NCBI GenBank assembly: GCA_964016885.1
Contig: OZ024766.1
Span: 20,956,001-21,020,000, forward strand
Length of the DNA stretch: 64,000 bases
Source of the DNA: Eledone cirrhosa
Taxonomy: Eukaryota
Reading direction: 5' to 3'
Shown here: piece by piece, positions 41,046 through 61,283 of the stretch
How positions within the stretch are numbered: the stretch's first letter is position 1
How the letters are laid out: every line of letters starts with the position of its first letter
Notes under the pieces: generated by a model
What the model was told of the DNA's origin: nothing
Databases searched by the model: none
What the model saw: the letters and a program-made list of their open reading frames with translations, nothing else
Translations under genes and position numbers: made by a program

Positions 41046-41124
41046 CACTACATCTGATTCCTCTTATACCCAGGTCTTCCTCTACTGCAGCTTCCTTCCA
41101 CTGGGAACTCTAATCTACAACAAC

Positions 41125-41760
41125 TAAGACTACATTATCTAATGTACAGTTCAGTAGTTAGTATTAGTGGCTATCAGACATAGTGTATCTAGGACTACAT
41201 TATCTAATGTACAGTACAGTAGTTAGTATTAGTGGCTATCAGACATAGTGTATCTAGGACTACATTATCTAATGTACAGTACAGTAGTTAGTATTAGTGG
41301 CTATCAGACATAGTGTATCTAGGACTACATTATCTAATGTACAGTACAGTAGTTAGTATTAGTGGCTATCAGACATAGTATATCTAGGACTACATTATCT
41401 AATGTACAGTACAGTAGTTAGTATTAGTGGCTATCAGACATAGTGTATCTAGGACTACATTATCTAATGTACAGTACAGTAGTTAGTATTAGTGGCTATC
41501 AGACATAGTGTATCTAGGACTACATTATCTAATGTACAGTACAGTAGTTAGTATTAGTGGCTATCAGACATAGTGTATCTAGGACTACATTATCTAATGT
41601 ACAGTACAGCAGTTAGTATTAGTGGCTATCAGACATAGTGTATCTAGGACTACATTATCTAATGTATAGTACAGTAGTTAGTATTAGTGGCTATCAGACA
41701 TAGTATATCTAGGACTACATTATCTAATGTACAGTACAGTAGTTAGTATTAGTGGCTATA
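41125..41760. repeat. 65-bp minisatellite (~10 copies)
   Basis: Unit ggactacattatctaatgtacagtacagtagttagtattagtggctatcagacatagtgtatcta. Confidence 0.95.
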
Positions 41761-44923: not shown

Positions 44924-45086
44924 TATATATATATACATGTATATATATATATATATACACACACACATATATATATATATACTCTCATATATATATATAC
45001 ATGTATATATATATATATATACATACACACACTTATACATGTATTAATGCTGCTGTCGTTGTTGTTGTTGTTTCAGTTTGGTAACC

Positions 45087-46662
45087 ATGGTGAACTGTCT
45101 TTTGCTCCTCCTGCTCTCCGCCGCCCTCTGCGGCCCCTGGCCCCACGCGGCTGGCACCCCAGGTGCAGGCGACCCCACTGACATGCCTCACCCCTTCGGC
45201 ACACTCGACAACCCTCCTCGCATTAGCGACCCCTTAAGAACACAGGCACCCTTAGAAACTCCTAACCCCTCTGGCACAGCTGACCCCCATCCTGGCATTA
45301 GCGACCCCTTAAGAACACAGGCACCCTTAGAAACTCCTAACCCCTCTGGCACAGCTGACCCCCATCCTGGCATTAGTGACCCCTTAAGAACACAAGAACT
45401 CTCTGTAGCGTGCGAGCCCTCTGACTCAGGCGACTCCCGTCGCATCGGTGACCCTTTAAGAACACATAAACCCTTAGAAACTGCTGACCCCTCTGACACA
45501 GGCGACTCCCGTCGCATCGGTGACCCTTTAAGAACACATAAACCCTTAGAAACTGCTGACCCCTCTGACTCAGGCGACACCCGTCGCATCGGTGACCCTT
45601 TAAGAACACATAAACCCTTAGAAACTGCTGACCCCTCTGACACAGGCGACACCCGTCGCATCGGTGACCCTTTAAGAACACATAAACCCTTAGAAACTGC
45701 TGACCCCTCTGGCAGACGTAACACCCCTCGCATTGGTGACCCTTTAAGAACACATAAACCCTTAGAAACTGCTGACCCCTCTGGCAGACGTAACACCCCT
45801 GGCATTGGTGACCCTTTAAGTACACACAATTCTTTAGTAACGCCTCACCCCACTGGCACAGGTGACACCTCAAAAACGCACAAGCCCTCAGTAAATCCTC
45901 ACGTTCGGGACCCACCCGGGGACGGTTCTGGTATACACAGGAAGCCGGTGTTTTCCACGAAAACCGCCTACAACTGGCTGAAACCGGACGCCTCGCAGTA
46001 CTTTGGTACGGAACCCGGCTGGCAGAGCGTCGTAAAGCACAAAGGACGCACCTGCAGGGCCATTTACGTCAACGCCGTCCTCCGGCACGGCTCCAGGTAC
46101 CCCGGGGACGGTGACATCGCGACCCTATTCAACATCGAACACCTCCTCAAAACCCTCAACCACACCGAGGGCCTCAACGATTCCCTTTTACAAACCCTCC
46201 ACCAATGGAAAACCCCTTTTACCGAGCAGGACGCTGGTTTGCTGTTGGGTCTCGGCGCGCACGAGCATTTTGAGATGGGGTTTGACTTTGCGCGGGTCTT
46301 TGAAGAGACCTTATTACAAAACGGGGACCACATGCCGATAAATTTTATCAGTTCTTCAAAGCAGCGTTGTCGAGACAGCTTAAGCTCCTTCAAGGACGGC
46401 ATGAAAGGTTACCTCAAGGGCCACCGCGCCACCGCGAAGGGCAGCAGGTTCGGCTACGACGAGCCGGAGTTTGATAAGGCCGCTCAGCAGAGCATCGACG
46501 ATTTCCTATTGCGCTTCTTCGACGAGTGCCCCAAATACCAGAAGATGGTGAGGAACAAGCCAGCGTTTGAGTACCAGCAGTTTTTCAAGGGTGCCCACAT
46601 GAGCAGGGTTGTCAGCAGGGTGCACCGCAGGTTTGGCCTTAACGCCAGTTTTTTCCGGACAG
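45087..46662 (+). CDS. MINPP1: MINPP1-like multiple inositol polyphosphate phosphatase (histidine acid phosphatase), coding exon 1
   Basis: Acceptor tttcag ends at 45076 and the ATG is in accATGg context. Encodes a hydrophobic signal peptide (MVNCLLLLLLSAALCG), the catalytic RHGSRYP motif (RHGxRxP) and MINPP-like LLRFFDEC. Donor AG|GTACGT at 46662/3, phase 1. Confidence 0.92.
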
Positions 46663-46666
46663 GTAC

Positions 46667-46667
46667 G

Positions 46668-46706
<39 letters not shown>

Positions 46707-46983
46707 GTGGTTGTTGTGGTGGTGTTGTGGTTGTTGTTGGTGGTGGTGGTGTGGTTGTTGTGGTTGTTGGTGGTGGTGGTGTGGTTGTTGTGGTTGTTGG
46801 TGGTGGTGGTGGTGTTGTTGTGGTTGCTGTTGTTGGTGGTGGTGGTGGTGGTGGTGTTGTTGTGGTTGCTGTTGTTGGTGGTGGTGGTGGTGGTGGTGGT
46901 GTTGTGGTTGTTGTTGGTGTGGTTGTTGTTGTTGTTGGTGGTGGTGGTGTGGTTGTTGTGGTTGTTGTTGGTGGTGGTGGTGG

Positions 46984-47014
<31 letters not shown>

Positions 47015-47613
47015 GGTGGTGTTGTTGTGGTTGTTGTTGGTGGTGGTGTTGTGGTTGTTGTTGTTGTTGTTGGTGGTGGTGTTGTGGTTGTTGTTGTTGT
47101 TGTTGGTGGTGGTGTTGTTGTGGTTGTTGTTGGTGGTGTTGTGGTTGTTGGTGTTGGTGGTGGTGGTGGTGTTGTGGTTGTTGTTGGTGGTGGTGGTGTT
47201 GTTGTGGTTGTTGTTGGTGGTGTTGTGGTTGTTGGTGTTGGTGGTGGTGGTGGTGTTGTGGTTGTTGTTGGTGGTGGTGGTGTTGTTGTTGTTGTTGTTG
47301 TTGTTACTGTTGTTGTTGTTGGTGGTGGTGGTGTTGTTGTGGTTGTTGTTGGTGGTGGTGGTGTTGTTGTGGTTGTTGTTGGTGGTGGTGGTGTTGTTGT
47401 GGTTGTTGTTGGTGGTGGTGGTGTTGTTGTTGTGGTTGTTGTTGTTGTTGGTGGTGTTGGTGGTGGTGTTGTTGTGGTTGGTGGTGGTGGTGTTGTTGTG
47501 GTTGTTGGTGGTGGTGGTGGTGGTGGTGGTGGTGGTGTTGTTGGTGGTGTTGTGGTTGTTGTTGTTGGTGTTGTGGTTGTTGGTGGTGGTGTTGTGGTTG
47601 TTGTGGTTGGTGG

Positions 47614-47644
<31 letters not shown>

Positions 47645-47851
47645 GTTGTTGTGGTGGTGGTGGTGTTGTTGTTGTTGTGGTTGGTGGTGGTGTTGTTGTT
47701 GTTGTTGGTGGTGTTGTGGTTGTTGTTGTTGGTGGTGTTGTGGTTGTTGTTGTTGGTGTTGTTGGTGGTGTTGGTGGTGGTGGTGTTGTTGGTGTTGTTG
47801 GTGTTGGTGTTACTGTTGTTGTGGTTGTGGTTGTGGTGGTGGTGGTGGTGT
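46667..47851. repeat. (GTT/GTG)n repeat starting within a few bases of the intron-1 donor
   Basis: Direct inspection. Confidence 0.95.
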
Positions 47852-48577: not shown

Positions 48578-48699
48578 AAGATGTCCGTGTGATGTATGTC
48601 GGCTGTGCAGTAGAGCAATGCCTCGCTAACATCTCTCATCTCTGTCAGTTGTTTGACGATAGTGACTTCGAAGTTCTGGAGTTTCTTGGAGATTTAAAG
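48578..48699 (+). CDS. MINPP1: MINPP1-like coding exon 2
   Basis: ttgcag| acceptor and AAG|GTAACC donor. The phase 1 join gives EDVRVMYVGCAVEQCLANISHLCQLFDDSDFEVLEFLGDLK, resembling vertebrate MINPP1 [20 protein letters not shown] (recalled, not aligned). Confidence 0.9.
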
Positions 48700-48789
48700 G
48701 TAACCCTATCTGTCTATCCATCTGTCTGTCTCTCTGTCTATCTGTCTGTCTGTCTGTCTCTGTCCCTATTGAGGACTGAGGACAGATGC

Positions 48790-49815
48790 CCTTCTCTCCG
48801 GACAACAACTCATTCCCTTCTTTAGGTACCACTTTAGAAGGAGAATCAGAGTGGAGAGAGAGAGAGGCACTGCACCCCAGTAAATTGACTGAAAGGTGGG
48901 TGAATGTGCCAACAATGGCCCGAGTGATTGGGCCTTCTCTGTATATAAACCTGTAGGTTGAAGAAGAGAGCAAAAGGAAGAAAGGGGCACTTGCACAACT
49001 CTCTATTCGTCTATCTATCTATCTGTCTTTCTCTCCGGACAACAACCCATTCCCTTCTTTAGGTACCACTTTAGAAGGAGAATCAGAGACACTGCACCCC
49101 AGTAAATTTACTGAAAGGTGGGTGAATGTGGCAAACATGGCCCGAGTGATTGGGCCTTCTCTGTATATAAACCTGTAGGTTGAAGAAGAGAGCAAAAGGA
49201 AGAAAGGAGCACTTGCACAACTCTCTATTCGTCTATCTATCTATCTGTCTTTCTCTCCGGACAACAACCCATTCCCTTCTTTAGGTACCACTTTAGAAGG
49301 AGAATCAGAGACACTGCACCCCAGTAAATTTACTGAAAGGTGGGTGAATGTGGCAAACATGGCCCGAGTGATTAGGCCTTCTCTGTATATAAACCTGTAG
49401 GTTGAAGAAGAGAGCAAAAGGAAGAAAGGAGCACTTGCACAACTCTCTATTCGTCTATCTATCTATTTATCTATCTATCTGTCTTTCTCTCCGGACAACA
49501 ACCCATTCCCTTCTTTAGGTACCACTTTAGAAGGAGAATCAGGGTGGAGAGAGAGGCACTGCACCCCAGTAAATTTACTGAAAGGTGGGTGAATGTGGCA
49601 AACATGGCCCGAGTGATTGGGCCTTCTCTGTATATAAACCTGTAGGTTGAAGAAGAGGGCAAAAGGAAGAAAGGGGCACTTGCACAACATGCTCCTGAAG
49701 TTGAGGGTTGTTCTATCTACGGGGTATTTACACGACTGTATGTAAAATCCCCGGCATGTGTCTTTGTTTTGTCCCCTTTTCTTGTGCGCCCTTGTGGCTA
49801 ATAAAGAAATATATC
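48790..49815 (+). repeat. ~220-240-bp tandem x4, ending in a LINE-like 3' end (ctaataaagaaata)
   Basis: ctctccggacaacaac recurs at ~48793, 49031, 49253 and 49487. Confidence 0.8.
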
Positions 49816-50108
49816 TGTCTGTCTTCTCATTACTGAATGCAGCAACTGTTACATACTGCACCAACTTTTGCACTTCTTACACTTAATTCAGCCGTCTGTC
49901 TTCTTCCATCACTCGTGAACAGAGCTTACAATCTCTGGGGAAACAAGCCCTACCCCAAAGCCCTAAAGGAAATATCAGGGGCAGTGGTAAGGAGTTCTGG
50001 TCGAGCAGGAAGGAAAAGCATCTCTATAATCGTTTGAGAGGACATTTTGTATTTTAACACGGGCTAAGGGAAGTAACTCTGTGTCAGTCGTGCTTGCTAA
50101 GTTTACTT

Positions 50109-51625
50109 GTGAAATACTGGGGTAGATTTTATAGACTAAGACTAACTTTACCTTACATTCTTCTGGAGTTGATAAAATATAGTACCAGTGAAATACTGGG
50201 GTAGATTTTATAGGCTAAGACTAACTTTACCTTACATTCTTCTGGGGTTGATAAAATATAGTACCAGTGAAATACTGGGGTAGATTTTATAGGCTAAGAC
50301 TAACTTTACCTTACATTCTTCTGGGGTTGATAAAATATAGTACCAGTGAAATACTGGGGTAGATTTAATAGGCTAAGACTAACTTTACCTTACATTCTTC
50401 TGGGGTTGATAAAATATAGTACCAGTGAAATACTGGGGTAGATTTAATAGGCTAAGACTAACTTTACCTTACATTCTTCTGGGGTTGATAAAATATAGTA
50501 CCAGTGAAATACTGGGCTAGATTTAATAGGCTAAGACTAACTTTACCTTACATTCTTCTGGGGTTGATAAAATATAGTACCAGTGAAATACTGGGGTAGA
50601 TTTAATAGGCTAAGACTAACTTTACCTTACATTCTTCTGGGGTTGATAAAATATAGTACCAGTCACATACTGGGGTAGATTTAATAGGCTAAGACTAACT
50701 TTACCTTACATTCTTCTGGGGTTGATAAAATATAGTACCAGTGAAATACTGGGGTAGATTTAATAGGCTAAGACTAACTTTACCTTTCATACTTCTGGGG
50801 TTGATAAAATATAGTACCAGTGAAATACTGGGGTAGATTTAATAGACTAAGACTAACTTTACCTTACATTCTTCTGGGGTTGATAAAATATAGTACCAGT
50901 GACATACTGGGGTAGATTTAATAGGCTAAGACTAACTTTACCTTACATTCTTCTGGGGTTGATAAAATATAGTACCAGTGACATACTGGGGTAGATTTAA
51001 TAGGCTAAGACTAACTTTACCTTACATTCTTCTGGGGTTGATAAAATATAGTACCAGTCACATACTGGGGTAGATTTAATAGACTAACACTAACTTTACC
51101 TTACATTCTTCTGGGGTTGATAAAATATAGTACCAGTGACATACTGGGGTAGATTTAATAGACTAAGACTAACTTTACCTTACATTCTTCTGGGGTTGAT
51201 AAAATATAGTACCAGTGACATACTGGGGTAGATTTAATAGGCTAAGACTAACTTTACCTTACATTCTTCTGGGGTTGATAAAATATAGTACCAGTGACAT
51301 ACTGGGGTAGATTTAATAGACTAAGACTAACTTTACCTTACATTCTTCTGGGGTTGATAAAATATAGTACCAGTCACATACTGGGGTAGATTTAATAGAC
51401 TAAGACTAACTTTACCTTACATTCTTCTGGGGTTGATAAAATATAGTACCAGTCACATACTGGGGTAGATTTAATAGACTAAGACTAACTTTACCTTACA
51501 TTCTTCTGGGGTTGATAAAATATAGTACCAGTGACATACTGGGGTATATTTTATAGACTGAAACTACATTTACCTTACATTCTTCTGGGGTTGATAAAAT
51601 ATAATACCAGTGAAATATTGGGGTT
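50109..51625. repeat. 79-bp minisatellite (~19 copies), SINE-body derived
   Basis: Unit contains ggggttgataaaatatagtaccagt...tactggggtagat, related to the SINE bodies at 12.8 kb and 61.5 kb. Confidence 0.9.
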
Positions 51626-51730
51626 TACTTAACTATATTCTTTTCCAGATATTTTTGAAACCTGTGGGGCCAATATTTGAATCCTGTTTAATGAAATACT
51701 TTTTCTTCTCTTCTCTTTTCTTTTCTTCGG

Positions 51731-54225
51731 TACCACCAACAACCACAACCACCACCAACAACCACAACCACCACCAACAACCACAACCACGACCAACAAC
51801 CACAACCACGACCAACAACCACAACCACCACCAACAACCACAACCACCACCAACAACCACAACCACCACCAACAACCACAACCACCACCAACAACCACAA
51901 CCACCACCAACAACCACAACCACCACCAACAACCACAACCACCACCAACAACCACAACCACCACCAACAACCACAACCACCACCAACAACCAAAACCACC
52001 ACCAACAACCACAACCACCACCAACAACCACAACCACCACCAACAACCAAAACCACCACCAACAACCACAACCACCACCAACAACCAAAACCACCACCAA
52101 CAACCACAACCACCACCAACAACCAAAACCACCACCAATAACCACAACCACCACCAACAACCACAACCACCACCAACAACCAAAACCACCACCAATAACC
52201 ACAACCACCACCAACAACCACAACCACCACCAACAACCAAAACCACCACCAACAACCACAACCACCACCAACAACCACAACCACCACCAACAACCACAAC
52301 CACCACCGACAACCACAACCACCACCAACAACCACAACCACCACCAACAACCACAACCACCACCAACAACCACAACCACCACCAACAACCACAACCACCA
52401 CCAACAACCAAAACCACCACCAACAACCACAACCACCACCAACAACCACAACCACCACCAACAACCACAACCACCACCAACAACCACAACCACCACCAAC
52501 AACCACAACCACCACCAACAACCACAACCACCACCAACAACCAAAACCACCACCAACAACCACAACCACCACCAACAACCACAACCACCACCAACAACCA
52601 AAACCACCACCAACAACCACAACCACCACCAACAACCAAAACCACCACCAACAACCACAACCACCACCAACAACCAAAACCACCACCAATAACCACAACC
52701 ACCACCAACAACCACAACCACCACCAACAACCAAAACCACCACCAATAACCACAACCACCACCAACAACCACAACCACCACCAACAACCAAAACCACCAC
52801 CAACAACCACAACCACCACCAACAACCACAACCACCACCAACAACCACAACCACCACCAACAACCACAACCACCACCAACAACCACAACCACCACCAACA
52901 ACCAAAACCATCACCAACAACCACAACCACCACCAACAACCACAACCACCACCAACAACCACAACCACCACCAACAACCACAACCACCACCAACAACCAC
53001 AACCATCACCAACAACCACAACCACCACCAACAACCACAACCACCACCAACAACCACAACCATCACCAACAACCACAACCACCACCAACAACCACAACCA
53101 CCACCAACAACCACAACCACCACCAACAACCAAAACCACCACCAACAACCACAACCACCACCAACAACCAAAACCACCACCAACAACCACAACCACCACC
53201 AACAACCACAACCACCACCAACAACCACAACCACCACCAACAACCACAACCACCACCAACAACCACAACCATCACCAACAACCACAACCACCACCAACAA
53301 CCACAACCACCACCAACAACCACAACCACCACCAACAACCACAACCACCACCAACAACCACAACCACCACCAACAACCAAAACCATCACCAACAACCACA
53401 ACCACCACCAACAACCACAACCACCACCAACAACCACAACCACCACCAACAACCACAACCACCACCAACAACCACAACCATCACCAACAACCACAACCAC
53501 CACCAACAACCACAACCACCACCAACAACCACAACCACCACCAACAACCACAACCACCACCAACAACCACAACCACCACCAACAACCACAACCATCACCA
53601 ACAACCACAACCACCACCAACAACCACAACCACCACCAACAACCACAACCACCACCAACAACCACAACCACCACCAACAACCACAACCACCACCAACAAC
53701 CACAACCACCACCAACAACCACAACCACCACCAACAACCAAAACCACCACCAATAACCACAACCACCACCAACAACCACAACCACCACCAACAACCACAA
53801 CCACCACCAACAACCACAACCACCACCAACAACCACAACCACCACCAACAACCACAACCACCACCAACAACCACAACCACCACCAACAACCAAAACCACC
53901 ACCAATAACCACAACCACCACCAACAACCACAACCACCACCAACAACCACAACCACCACCAACAACCAAAACCACCACCAATAACCACAACCACCACCAA
54001 CAACCACAACCACCACCAACAACCAAAACCACCACCAATAACCACAACCACCACCAACAACCACAACCACCACCAACAACCACAACCACCACCAACAACC
54101 ACAACCACCACCAACAACCAAAACCACCACCAATAACCACAACCACCACCAACAACCACAACCACCACCAACAACCAAAACCACCACCAATAACCACAAC
54201 CACCACCAACAACCACAACCACCAT
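51731..54225. repeat. 19-bp repeat (accaccaacaaccacaacc) x ~130, free of AG
   Basis: Direct inspection. Ends ~18 nt before the start of exon 3. Confidence 0.95.
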
Positions 54226-54243
54226 CATCCTCAACAACACTAG

Positions 54244-54359
54244 CATTACTGGACACGTTCCTATGGCAACCAGATCAACTATAAGCAGAGTTGTCCCCTC
54301 ATCAAGGACATCTTTGAAGAGATCCAAAGTTCTGTCGGTTCCCATATTGCTGGGGAGAG
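54244..54359 (+). CDS. MINPP1: MINPP1-like coding exon 3 (absent from the ORF track)
   Basis: tag|CAT acceptor, phase 0. Encodes HYWTRSYGNQINYKQSCPLIKDIFEEIQSSVGSHIAGE(R), matching the MINPP1 [24 protein letters not shown] region. Donor AG|GTACGT, phase 2. Confidence 0.9.
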
Positions 54360-54367
54360 GTACGTAA

Positions 54368-57300
54368 CATTATCTAATGTACAGTACAGTAGTTAGTATT
54401 AGTGGCTATCAGACATAGTGTATCTAGGACTACATTATCTAATGTACAGTACAGTAGTTAGTATTAGTGGCTATCAGACATAGTGTATCTAGGACTACAT
54501 TATCTAATGTACAGTACAGTAGTTAGTATTAGTGGCTATCAGACATAGTATATCTAGGACTACATTATCTAATGTACAGTACAGTAGTTAGTATTAGTGG
54601 CTATCAGACATAGTGTATCTAGGACTACATTATCTAATGTACAGTACAGTAGTTAGTATTAGTGGCTATCAGACATAGTGTATCTAGGACTACATTATCT
54701 AATGTACAGTACAGTAGTTAGTATTAGTGGCTATCAGACATAGTGTATCTAGGACTACATTATCTAATGTACAGTACAGTAGTTAGTATTAGTGGCTATC
54801 AGACATAGTGTATCTAGGACTACATTATCTAATGTACAGTACAGTAGTTAGTATTAGTGGCTATCAGACATAGTATATCTAGGACTACATTATCTAATGT
54901 ACAGTACAGTAGTTAGTATTAGTGGCAATCAGACATAGTATATCTAGGACTACATTATCTAATGTACAGTACAGTAGTTAGTATTAGTGGCTATCAGACA
55001 TAGTGTACCTAGGACTACATTATCTAATGTACAGTACAGTAGTTAGTATTAGTGGCTATCAGACATAGTGTACCTAGGACTACATTATCTAATGTACAGT
55101 ACAGTAGTTAGTATTAGTGGCTATCAGACATAGTGTATCTAGGACTACATTATCTAATGTACAGTACAGTAGTTAGTATTAGAGGCTATCAGACATAGTG
55201 TAGCTAGGACTACATTATCTAATGTACAGTACAGTAGTTAGTATTAGTGGCTATCAGACATAGTGTATCTAGGACTACATTATCTAATGTACAGTACAGT
55301 AGTTAGTATTAGTGGCTATCAGACATAGTGTATCTAGGACTACATTATCTAATGTACAGTACAGTAGTTAGTATTAGTGGCTATCAGACATAGTGTATCT
55401 AGGACTACATTATCTAATGTACAGTACAGTAGTTAGTATTAGTGGCTATCAGACATAGTATATCTAGGACTACATTATCTAATGTACAGTACAGTAGTTA
55501 GTATTAGTGGCTATCAGACATAGTGTATCTAGGACTACATTATCTAATGTACAGTACAGTAGTTAGTATTAGTGGCTATCAGACATAGTGTATCTAGGAC
55601 TACATTATCTAATGTACAGTACAGTAGTTGGTATTAGTGGCTATCAGACATAGTATATCTAGGACTACATTATCTAATGTACAGTACAGTAGTTAGTATT
55701 AGTGGCTATCAGACATAGTGTATCTAGGACTACATTATCTAATGTACAGTACAGTAGTTAGTATTAGTGGCTATCAGACATAGTATATCTAGGACTACAT
55801 TATCTAATGTACAGTACAGTAGTTAGTATTAGTGGCTATCAGACATAGTATATCTAGGACTACATTATCTAATGTACAGTACAGTAGTTAGTATTAGTGG
55901 CTATCAGACATAGTGTATCTAGGACTACATTATCTAATGTACAGTACAGTAGTTGGTATTAGTGGCTATCAGACATAGTATATCTAGGACTACATTATCT
56001 AATGTACAGTACAGTAGTTAGTATTAGTGGCTATCAGACATAGTGTATCTAGGACTACATTATCTAATGTACAGTACAGTAGTTAGTATTAGTGGCTATC
56101 AGACATAGTATATCTAGGACTACATTATCTAATGTACAGTACAGTAGTTAGTATTAGTGGCTATCAGACATAGTGTATCTAGGACTACATTATCTAATGT
56201 ACAGTACAGTAGTTGGTATTAGTGGCTATCAGACAGTGTATCTAGGACTACATTATCTAATGTACAGTACAGTAGTTAGTATTAGTGGCTATCAGACATA
56301 GTGTACCTAGGACTACATTATCTAATGTACAGTATAGTAGTTAGTATTAGTGGCTATCAGACATAGTGTATCTAGGACTACATTATCTAATGTACAGTAC
56401 AGTAGTTAGTATTAGTGGCTATCAGACATAGTGTATCTAGGACTACATTATCTAATGTACAGTACAGTAGTTAGTATTAGTGGCTATCAGACATAGTGTA
56501 CCTAGGACTACATTATCTAATGTACAGTATAGTAGTTAGTATTAGTGGCTATCAGACATAGTGTACCTAGGACTACATTATCTAATGTACAGTACAGTAG
56601 TTAGTATTAGTGGCTATCAGACATAGTGTATCTAGGACTACATTATCTAATGTACAGTACAGTAGTTAGTATTAGTGGCTATCAGACATAGTGTATCTAG
56701 GACTACACTATCTAATGTACAGTACAGTAGTTAGTATTAGTGGCTATCAGACATAGTGTATCTAGGACTACATTATCTAATGTACAGTATAGTAGTTAGT
56801 ATTAGTGGCTATCAGACATAGTATATCTAGGACTACATTATCTAATGTACAGTACAGTAGTTAGTATTAGTGGCTATCAGACATAGTGTACCTAGGACTA
56901 CATTATCTAATGTACAGTATAGTAGTTAGTATTAGTGGCTATCAGACATAGTGTACCTAGGACTACATTATCTAATGTACAGTATAGTAGTTAGTATTAG
57001 TGGCTATCAGACATAGTGTATCTAGGACTACATTATCTAATGTACAGTACAGTAGTTAGTATTAGTGGCTATCAGACATAGTGTACCTAGGACTACATTA
57101 TCTAATGTACAGTACAGTAGTTAGTATTAGTGGCTATGAGACATAGTGTATCTAGGACTACATTATCTAATGTACAGTACAGTAGTTAGTATTAGTGGCT
57201 ATCAGACGTAGTGTATCTAGGACTACATTATCTAATGTACAGTACAGTAGTTAGTATTAGTGGCTATCAGACATAGTGTATCTAGGACTACATTATCTAA

Positions 57301-60300
57301 TGTACAGTACAGTAGTTAGTATTAGTGGCTATCAGACATAGTGTATCTAGGACTACATTATCTAATGTACAGTACAGTAGTTAGTATTAGTGGCTATTAG
57401 ACATAGTGTATCTAGGACTACATTATCTAATGTACAGTACAGTAGTTAGTATTAGTGGCTATCAGACATAGTATATCTAGGACTACATTATCTAATGTAC
57501 AGTACAGTAGTTAGTATTAGTGGCTATCAGACATAGTATATCTAGGACTACATTATCTAATGTACAGTACAGTAGTTAGTATTAGTGGCTATCAGACATA
57601 GTGTATCTAGGACTACATTATCTAATGTACAGTACAGTAGTTAGTATTAGTGGCTATCAGACATAGTGTATCTAGGACTACATTATCTAATGTACAGTAC
57701 AGTAGTTAGTATTAGTGGCTATTAGACATAGTGTATCTAGGACTACATTATCTAATGTACAGTACAGTAGTTAGTATTAGTGGCTATCAGACATAGTATA
57801 TCTAGGACTACATTATCTAATGTACAGTACAGTAGTTAGTATTAGTGGCTATCAGACATAGTATATCTAGGACTACATTATCTAATGTACAGTACAGTAG
57901 TTAGTATTAGTGGCTATCAGACATAGTGTATCTAGGACTACATTATCTAATGTACAGTACAGTAGTTAGTATTAGTGGCTATCAGACATAGTATATCTAG
58001 GACTACATTATCTAATGTACAGTACAGTAGTTAGTATTAGTGGCTATCAGACATAGTATATCTAGGACTACATTATCTAATGTACAGTATAGTAGTTAGT
58101 ATTAGTGGCTATCAGACATAGTGTATCTAGGACTACATTATCTAATGTACAGTACAGTAGTTAGTATGAGTGGCTATCAGACATAGTGTATCTAGGACTA
58201 CATTATCTAATGTACAGTACAGTAGTTAGTATGAGTGGCTATCAGACATAGTGTATCTAGGACTACATTATCTAATGTACAGTACAGTAGTTAGTATTAG
58301 TGGCTATCAGACATAGTATATCTAGGACTACATTATCTAATGTACAGTACAGTAGTTAGTATTAGTGGCTATCAGATATAGTGTATCTAGGACTACATTA
58401 TCTAATGTACAGTACAGTAGTTAGTATTAGTGGCTATCAGACATAGTGTATCTAGGACTACATTATCTAATGTACAGTACAGTAGTTAGTATTAGTGGCT
58501 ATCAGACATAGTGTATCTAGGACTACATTATCTAATGTACAGTACAGTAGTTAGTATTAGTGGCTATCAGACATAGTGTATCTCGGACTACACTATCTAA
58601 TGTACAGTACAGTAGTTAGTATTAGTGGCTATCAGACATAGTGTATCTAGGACTACATTATCTAATGTACAGTATAGTAGTTAGTATTAGTGGCTATCAG
58701 ACATAGTATATCTAGGACTACATTATCTAATGTACAGTACAGTAGTTAGTATTAGTGGCTATCAGACATAGTGTACCTAGGACTACATTATCTAATGTAC
58801 AGTATAGTAGTTAGTATTAGTGGCTATCAGACATAGTGTACCTAGGACTACATTATCTAATGTACAGTATAGTAGTTAGTATTAGTGGCTATCAGACATA
58901 GTGTATCTAGGACTACATTATCTAATGTACAGTACAGTAGTTAGTATTAGTGGCTATCAGACATAGTGTACCTAGGACTACATTATCTAATGTACAGTAC
59001 AGTAGTTAGTATTAGTGGCTATCAGACATAGTGTATCTAGGACTACATTATCTAATGTACAGTACAGTAGTTAGTATTAGTGGCTATCAGACGTAGTGTA
59101 TCTAGGACTACATTATCTAATGTACAGTACAGTAGTTAGTATTAGTGGCTATCAGACATAGTGTATCTAGGACTACATTATCTAATGTACAGTACAGTAG
59201 TTAGTATTAGTGGCTATCAGACATAGTGTATCTAGGACTACATTATCTAATGTACAGTACAGTAGTTAGTATTAGTGGCTATTAGACATAGTGTATCTAG
59301 GACTACATTATCTAATGTACAGTACAGTAGTTAGTATTAGTGGCTATCAGACATAGTATATCTAGGACTACATTATCTAATGTACAGTACAGTAGTTAGT
59401 ATTAGTGGCTATCAGACATAGTATATCTAGGACTACATTATCTAATGTACAGTACAGTAGTTAGTATTAGTGGCTATCAGACATAGTGTATCTAGGACTA
59501 CATTATCTAATGTACAGTACAGTAGTTAGTATTAGTGGCTATCAGACATAGTGTATCTAGGACTACATTATCTAATGTACAGTACAGTAGTTAGTATTAG
59601 TGGCTATTAGACATAGTGTATCTAGGACTACATTATCTAATGTACAGTACAGTAGTTAGTATTAGTGGCTATCAGACATAGTATATCTAGGACTACATTA
59701 TCTAATGTACAGTACAGTAGTTAGTATTAGTGGCTATCAGACATAGTATATCTAGGACTACATTATCTAATGTACAGTACAGTAGTTAGTATTAGTGGCT
59801 ATCAGACATAGTGTATCTAGGACTACATTATCTAATGTACAGTACAGTAGTTAGTATTAGTGGCTATCAGACATAGTATATCTAGGACTACATTATCTAA
59901 TGTACAGTACAGTAGTTAGTATTAGTGGCTATCAGACATAGTATATCTAGGACTACATTATCTAATGTACAGTATAGTAGTTAGTATTAGTGGCTATCAG
60001 ACATAGTGTATCTAGGACTACATTATCTAATGTACAGTACAGTAGTTAGTATGAGTGGCTATCAGACATAGTGTATCTAGGACTACATTATCTAATGTAC
60101 AGTACAGTAGTTAGTATTAGTGGCTATCAGACATAGTATATCTAGGACTACATTATCTAATGTACAGTACAGTAGTTAGTATTAGTGGCTATCAGACATA
60201 GTGTATCTAGGACTACATTATCTAATGTACAGTACAGTAGTTAGTATTAGTGGCTATCAGACATAGTGTATCTAGGACTACATTATCTAATGTACAGTAC

Positions 60301-60357
60301 AGTAGTTAGTATTAGTGGCTATCAGACATTGTCTACCTTGGACTACATCATCCAATG
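54368..60357. repeat. 65-bp satellite (~92 copies) filling MINPP1 intron 3
   Basis: Same unit as 41125-41760. Confidence 0.97.
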
Positions 60358-60385
60358 TTTGATCTGTTTCTCCTTATATTTTCAG

Positions 60386-61283
60386 GTACTCAGTTGGCAA
60401 GCTAATGTTCGGACATGCTGAGACCCTGGCCCCACTCTATTCCACCCTGGGGCTGTTTAAGGACCCCCACGTCCTCAAGGCCGACAATTATGAGCAGCTC
60501 TCCAGGCGCAGATTCCGCACCAGCTTCATTCTGCCGTTCGCTGCTAACATAGCTATCGTTGTGTATCACTGTGGCACAGAGGGCGACCCCGAGGCAGGGG
60601 CAGACAATCAGCAGACATTTGAGTCAAGGGAAGATAATCTGAGATCATCAGAGGCTGTAACGGAGAGCGAGCAGATAAGTTTGTCTGCAGCGGAATATCA
60701 GCGGACATTTGAAGCAGCAGCAGAGAATCAGCAGACATCTGAAGCAGCAGCAGAGAATCAGCGGACATCTGAAGCAGCAGCAGAGAATCAACGGACATCT
60801 GAGGCAGCAGTAGAGAATCAGCGGACATTTGAAGCAGCAGCAGAGAATCAGCGGACATCTGAAGCAGCAGCAGAGAATCAGCGGACATCTGAAGCAGCAG
60901 CAGAGAATCAGCGGACATCTGAGGCAGCAGCAGAGAATCAGCGGACATCTGAGGCAGCAGCAGAGAATCGGCGGACATTTGAAGCAGCAGCAGAGAATCA
61001 GCGGACAACTCAGTCAGCAGCGGAGGAGGAGGAGAATGGAGAGGAGGCGTCTGAGGCAAGGGGAGACAACCGGGGGTCGTCCAGGGGCAGCAGGTGGCTC
61101 CCCCAGCGAGCGTTGCTGGACGGCTATGTGGTGCGGGTGTACGTGAACAAGCACCCGGTGGCGCTGTCCGGATGCGGGGTGACGTGCCCCCTGGAGACGT
61201 TCCTGGCCAGGTATGACGCCGTGCGGGACTGTGACTTCGACAGGATCTGTTTGTTGAATTCCACCTCCAAAGTTGAGCTGTGA
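60386..61283 (+). CDS. MINPP1: MINPP1-like last coding exon
   Basis: Pyrimidine tract plus ttcag|, phase 2 join. Encodes FGHAETL (MINPP HAE motif) and FRTSFILPFAANIAIVVYHC, and ends KVEL-stop (KDEL-like). Joined CDS is 2712 nt, or 903 aa plus stop. Confidence 0.93.

Follow-up and report, generated by a model that had tools for sequence, protein, structure and literature searches.

A 2.5-kb AG-free C/A minisatellite precedes a uridine-poor 3' splice site in a MINPP1-like gene of Eledone cirrhosa

Results

Analysis of the 64,000-nt window (the whole stretch of DNA considered here) revealed four coding exons on the plus strand of a gene that, judged from its sequence, is an octopod MINPP1-like histidine phosphatase and that carries a long C/A array in its second intron. 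Coding exon 1 (45087..46662) has a signal-peptide-like start, a coding repeat and an RHGxRxP motif. It matches the Pfam domain His_Phos_2 with E=3.7e-11, and a protein search gave two matches among 547 candidates, the best being a MINPP1-like protein of O. sinensis (Octopus sinensis) at 55%. The His_Phos_2 domain, the RHGxRxP motif and the colinearity with MINPP1-like proteins together place the product in histidine phosphatase branch 2. Coding exon 2 (48578..48699, 122 nt, donor AAG/GTAACC) was assigned by homology, and its 3' end coincides with a loose end of a contig from run X3. Coding exon 3 (54244..54359, 116 nt, donor AG/GTACGT) was assigned by homology and by the same contig, whose downstream loose end marks the start of the last coding exon (60386..61283), which ends in KVEL and a stop codon. 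Joined as 45087-46662, 48578-48699, 54244-54359 and 60386-61283, the exons form a single open frame of 903 aa, which aligns with the O. sinensis MINPP1-like protein at 58% over 400 residues and is gap-free at all three junctions, including the K/H junction. Exon 3 lies inside the catalytic domain in this model, and skipping of either exon 3 or the 122-nt exon 2 would shift the reading frame.

The preliminary description of this DNA had proposed a 48699-54244 splice junction, and this join is present in one 630-nt X3 contig (depth 11.6), which also carries the exon 3-4 join. Run X3 was taken to be transcript-derived on the basis of the spliced form of this contig, so the junction is RNA evidence by inference. 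One of the eight X3 records at 54187-54385 covers exon 3, with zero differences and in the form exon 2-3-4; since contigs drop rare isoforms, some skipping may have escaped detection. Two alternative gene structures were rejected. Reading the array as a coding exon is contradicted by an in-frame stop at 52139-52141 and by homologs that lack the insertion, and a downstream in-frame AG (54272-54273), if it served as acceptor, would cost the protein 10 conserved residues; the X3 contig does not use it. A metagenome scan with the O. sinensis MINPP1-like protein for the orthologous intron returned one locus of 27% identity among 25 candidates, which was left out of the comparison.

The protein is longer than its O. 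sinensis counterpart (903 versus 527 aa), the extra length coming from coding tandem repeats at 45228-45869 (24-aa units) and 60697-61025 (10-aa units), both outside the catalytic core. Upstream of exon 1, a (GTT)n stretch at 45050-45076 ends in an acceptor-like TTTCAG 10 nt 5' of the ATG. A non-coding upstream exon may therefore exist there, and the exon numbers would then shift.

Tandem repeats dominate the window: TRF masks 53,173 of its 64,000 bases, and the three introns of the gene are 88-99% repeat. Repeats reach within 5-28 nt of five of the six splice sites, so that a repeat abutting a splice site is normal here. A 79-bp tandem array that does contain AG occupies 50109..51624 of intron 2 (TRF; plus strand). 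Elsewhere, a 65-bp array at 54367-60358 fills 99% of intron 3 and recurs in the same orientation 5' of the gene (41124-41759), and three further minisatellite families each occur twice in the window (6481-7338/24605-25592, 10508-10960/31296-31835 and 26037-27405/43460-44003). Some of these pairs are in inverted orientation, and fragments of a LINE-like reverse transcriptase gave rise to some of the families.

The C/A minisatellite itself was delimited by TRF as 131 units of 19 bp (51732..54224, plus strand; 2,493 nt with 3 G). Eighty-eight units have the consensus sequence and 43 are variants, which involve five substitution types and are arranged in ordered blocks, as is typical of a real minisatellite. 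The array contains 251 CACC, 108 CACA and 384 CAA motifs, and folding prediction on three 600-nt pieces gave 0 pairs and 0 kcal/mol. Looping by the array's own structure was rejected on this basis, and no hairpin is predicted that could bring branch point and AG together in the way that structure shortens distant branch-point spacing in yeast. It is highly improbable that the array was over-expanded or misplaced in assembly, or represents a long allele of a polymorphic VNTR, and that most chromosomes have a tract-to-AG spacing of tens to hundreds of bases, as in an ordinary distant-branch-point intron. Zero X1, X2 or X4 records bridge the array and exon 3, which would fit such an artefact, although that record set was filtered and its holes are uninformative. 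The ordered variant blocks argue against it, as do a window without any N and the many other arrays resolved in it; moreover, the array grades into the acceptor, so that a U-rich tract would be missing there whatever the copy number.

An AG at 51647 is followed by the next one at 54242, a gap of 2,595 nt that is the longest in the window and ends at the used acceptor. As the preliminary description had stated, a scan finds no AG from 51649 to 54241, repeat included. That description regarded the gap as an AG-selective exclusion zone, and here the data point the other way. The dinucleotides GT, TG, GG, TT, CT and GC are missing across the same ~2.5 kb, and the long absence of AG follows from an array that is nearly devoid of G. 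Among 2,000 shuffles of the array, 13.7% were AG-free, and the three G residues of the array represent two independent G-creating mutation types, for which the probability that neither makes an AG is about 0.28. Neither the shuffles (0.14) nor the mutation events (0.28) thus indicate AG depletion beyond composition, and selection against AG is not detectable among the array variants. When the 83 unique bases upstream of the array are shuffled, 8% of the shuffles are AG-free, a figure that is not independent because the last AG sets their boundary. Gaps longer than 400 nt between AGs occur 12 times on the plus strand of the window and seven times on the minus strand; one of the latter, of 2,505 nt, is on the antisense strand of the C/A array itself. 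The AG gap is therefore compositional and not AG-specific.

The acceptor region of exon 3 (54225..54243, plus strand) consists of a degenerate array end, a short CATCATCCTC stretch and the TAG used in the X3 contig. It lacks a U-rich tract, in agreement with the preliminary description: positions -20 to -4 hold 10 pyrimidines out of 17, with 3 T. By comparison, the intron-1 acceptor has 8 pyrimidines out of 17 yet is U-rich, and has a good branch motif at -24. The last 60 nt before exon 3 contain four CACC and two CATC motifs. Two proximal branch candidates are predicted. A54227 (-17), within the acceptor region, is weak, and A54193 (-51), chosen by its U2 match score, lies in the last AATAAC unit of the array (54188..54194, plus strand). 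Ten array units contain AATAAC; those at -51 and -108 each make 4 of 6 Watson-Crick matches to U2, and no U-rich tract follows either. Six of the ten fall in the last 26 of the 131 units (nominal P=0.004, with units dependent through block duplication). The 25 nt downstream of A54193 contain zero U; judged by human rules, they would bind U2AF65 poorly, and a branch at -51 is itself rather distant. This predicted position is at the edge of the ~50-nt interval before 54243 in which, according to the preliminary description, a branch point would speak against distant branching.

At the other end of the zone, its 5' edge, the last AG belongs to a canonical-looking acceptor (51627..51648, plus strand) with a branch-like TTAAC, a short pyrimidine tract and CAG, which is unused in the X3 contig; from it, an in-frame pseudo-exon of 81 nt without stop codons would extend to a weak GTACCA donor. 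Immediately beyond lie the features that had drawn attention to the locus, a TTTAAT at 51687-51692 and a 30-nt pure pyrimidine tract at 51699-51728, and both positions proved exact. The tract (plus strand) is U-rich with TTTTC/TTCTC-like pentamers, and the next AG 3' of it is the one at 54242, so that the acceptor is indeed the first AG available from there. Motif scoring predicts branch candidates at A51690, A51691 and A51694 (-2554 to -2550; 51687..51694, plus strand), 5-9 nt upstream of the tract. The motif is weak: TTTAAT makes two U2 matches plus two wobbles, and A51694 three plus one. A distant-branch-point layout, in which a branch-like motif and a pyrimidine tract stand at the 5' end of the zone, is therefore borne out as far as these elements go; the AG-selective zone that would complete it is not.

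The tract is unusual for its surroundings. All 30 of its bases are pyrimidines, whereas the corresponding positions of six other C/A-type arrays have 14-18 out of 30. In the sequence of the window left unmasked by TRF, no other U-rich stretch on either strand reaches 27/30 pyrimidines. Inside the TRF mask, a further run of pure pyrimidine, 33 nt long (29487-29519, minus strand), lies in a unique island and is followed within 6 nt by CAG; it is the only comparable pure tract outside CT microsatellite, and shows that such tracts can look acceptor-like here. The island (29420-29560, minus strand) is a 140-nt unique stretch in an (AT)n array and combines a branch-like TAAC with pyrimidine tract and CAG. 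The distal tract is itself a pentamer-like microsatellite. Microsatellites cluster. In a check for a SINE-like tail, the sequence at 51605-51690 turned out to extend the 79-bp unit and to have an anchor in common with an 81-bp array, but the parts downstream of it have no visible match. A recursive splice site at the tract end was rejected, since the sequence reads CG/GT and not AG/GT (one base short) and would supply no tract for 54243. The chances that the distal tract is an ancestral tract displaced by the expansion of the array are roughly even.

Intron 1 carries, from its position +5, a 1,184-nt G/T microsatellite (46667..47850, plus strand) that resembles the reverse complement of the C/A array and aligns with it end to end at 81% identity in many registers. 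For 300-nt pieces, the predicted duplex reaches -387 and -409 kcal/mol; when the G/U strands are shuffled, the values are about -284 and -304. The duplex would, according to this modelling, enclose exon 2. The two arrays have 178 of 1,173 12-mers in common. For other arrays the number is at most 13, although these also align at 77-80%. This count exceeds Markov nulls of order 2-4 and not that of order 6, in which 137 of 200 replicates reach it. Shared motif grammar thus explains the 12-mer sharing, which does not point to selection for complementarity between introns 1 and 2. The predicted duplex could be an ADAR substrate in which AA is edited into decoy acceptors among the 384 CAA motifs; ADAR2 is described as creating acceptors from AA in PMC9105294.

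Discussion

The reading that we favour, with moderate confidence, is that the repeat creates the AG-free zone, that branching occurs close to the acceptor, and that this acceptor is weak and probably assisted by protein. The branch point is likely to lie in the last repeat units, at A54193 or A54227, and not 2.55 kb upstream. This placement is favoured because AATAAC matches U2 at least as well as TTTAAT does, and is weakened because no uridines follow any AATAAC unit. A mechanism is proposed in which the donor downstream of exon 3 would define this exon across its 116 nt, with the UAG read as a weak, AG-dependent acceptor. U2AF would be recruited with the help of a YB-1-type C/A-binding protein that replaces the U-rich tract, U2 would pair with an AAUAAC variant unit, and the first AG downstream would then be the only one available. 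A helper protein is likely to be needed at this acceptor; YB-1 is proposed by analogy with human cells, in which YB-1 bound to CAUC/CACC brings U2AF65 to weak tracts (PMC3458536). The distal tract would then be what is left of an older acceptor, stranded there, or else a neighbouring microsatellite of (CTTTT)n type.

The preliminary description had instead taken the layout to imply very long-range scanning or looping. U2AF and U2 would then assemble on 51687-51728, the first step would occur at about -2553, within 51690-51694, and the AG, 2.55 kb farther downstream, would be reached by scanning of the unstructured C/A minisatellite or by protein-mediated looping. The layout is what such a mechanism would call for: branch-like A's come first, a 30-nt U-rich tract follows, and the next AG is that of the used acceptor. 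Of seven C/A-type array edges compared, this is the one that has such a tract, and unmasked sequence contains no second one. The used acceptor has just 3 T in -20 to -4, and it is this combination of an unusual U-rich tract with an acceptor that lacks one that keeps distal branching alive. No predicted array structure stands in a scanner's way. The 0 predicted pairs speak, however, against looping by the array's own structure, and A54193 offers a closer branch candidate. The distal motif matches U2 no better than the proximal ones, and the AG gap carries no selection signal (P about 0.28). RNA helices can block spliceosomal scanning. The intron-1 G/U array, if still attached, is predicted to pair with the C/A array and would obstruct the scanner. 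In favour of distal branching, human lariat data (PMC5378181) place ~8% of branch points more than 60 nt upstream of the AG; against it, removing distal branch points from minigenes had a modest effect, smaller at greater distances. The distance would also be ~7x the -351 verified for PTB exon 11 (PMC1431707). Taken together, we consider branching at the distal site unlikely.

Recognition could also be split, with U2AF65 held on the distal tract and brought to the proximal branch and AG by an hnRNP L/YB-1-type coat on the array. Such recognition would explain why a U-rich tract and proximal AAUAAC units occur together, and the 251 CACC and 108 CACA motifs of the array would offer binding sites. 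Over short distances, CA-rich elements bound by hnRNP L do occur between a tract and its AG, as in CaRRE1 (PMC4320613), but the tract-AG elements described there and in PMC6339879 span ~10-15 nt and are mostly silencing. Such a division of labour is very unlikely.

If the proximal branch point that we favour is correct, the locus offers an acceptor with almost no uridine which, after a 2.5-kb C/A repeat, still splices a catalytic-domain exon, and adds a modest example of cephalopod introns that keep functioning although flooded with repeats. It also cautions that, in genomes of this kind, a long AG-free zone should be checked against base composition. Were the distal branch the true one, the array would be a naturally length-variable spacer setting a new limit for the second-step AG search, and the locus a natural test of the range of that search by the spliceosome. 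In a cephalopod, pairing with the intron-1 G/U array would in addition expose the spacer to A-to-I editing, where any of the 384 CAA motifs could become a decoy acceptor.

Comparison with Known Systems

A literature search, mainly of main texts outside subscription journals, turned up no example from cephalopods and no branch point mapped at kilobase distance; longer mapped ones may be listed in supplements. A repeat-made AG-free zone is already known, and what sets this one apart is its size together with a uridine-poor working acceptor. Gooding et al. 2006 (PMC1431707) describe a repeat-caused 369-nt AG-free zone whose sole good branch candidate is at -17 (IDB1079466.8106). As in that intron, an AG-less repeat abuts the 3' splice site, the zone is long and a branch candidate lies near the AG; unlike there, the zone measures 2,595 nt (7x), and a plausible tract and branch-like motif stand at its 5' edge. 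The same paper reports verified distant branch points at -275 (GABBR1 exon 23) and -351 (PTB exon 11), and predictions to -1079 in PTPRS that are unmatched in mouse. The E. cirrhosa intron resembles the two verified cases in having a branch-like motif and tract 5' of an AG-free zone whose first AG is used. It differs in its distance (-2553), in a zone made of G-less tandem repeat with no AG-specific depletion, and in branch sites that are predicted. Compared with those two exons, skipping of exon 3 would also shift the frame, and none is seen in the single X3 contig.

Other parallels concern the acceptor and the array. REPA/CaRRE1 elements (PMC4320613, PMC6339879) likewise place CA-rich sequence between tract and AG; the elements described there are ~10-15 nt long and belong to alternative exons, in contrast to 2.5 kb before a catalytic-domain exon. 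The YB-1-assisted weak 3' splice site of CD44 v5 (PMC3458536) similarly combines a poor tract with nearby CAUC and CACC, although that is a human alternative exon, and the likeness here is one of sequence motifs. The fish (AC)m-(GT)n introns of Lin et al. 2016 (PMC4691745) also have complementary simple repeats at donor and acceptor that obscure the usual tract. In those introns both repeats lie in the same intron, AC 5' and GT 3', an arrangement that is absent from this gene. Here, the order is reversed, with G/T at the donor and C/A at the acceptor, and the units are not dinucleotides; the arrays occupy introns 1 and 2, so that their pairing would bridge no single intron and would enclose exon 2.
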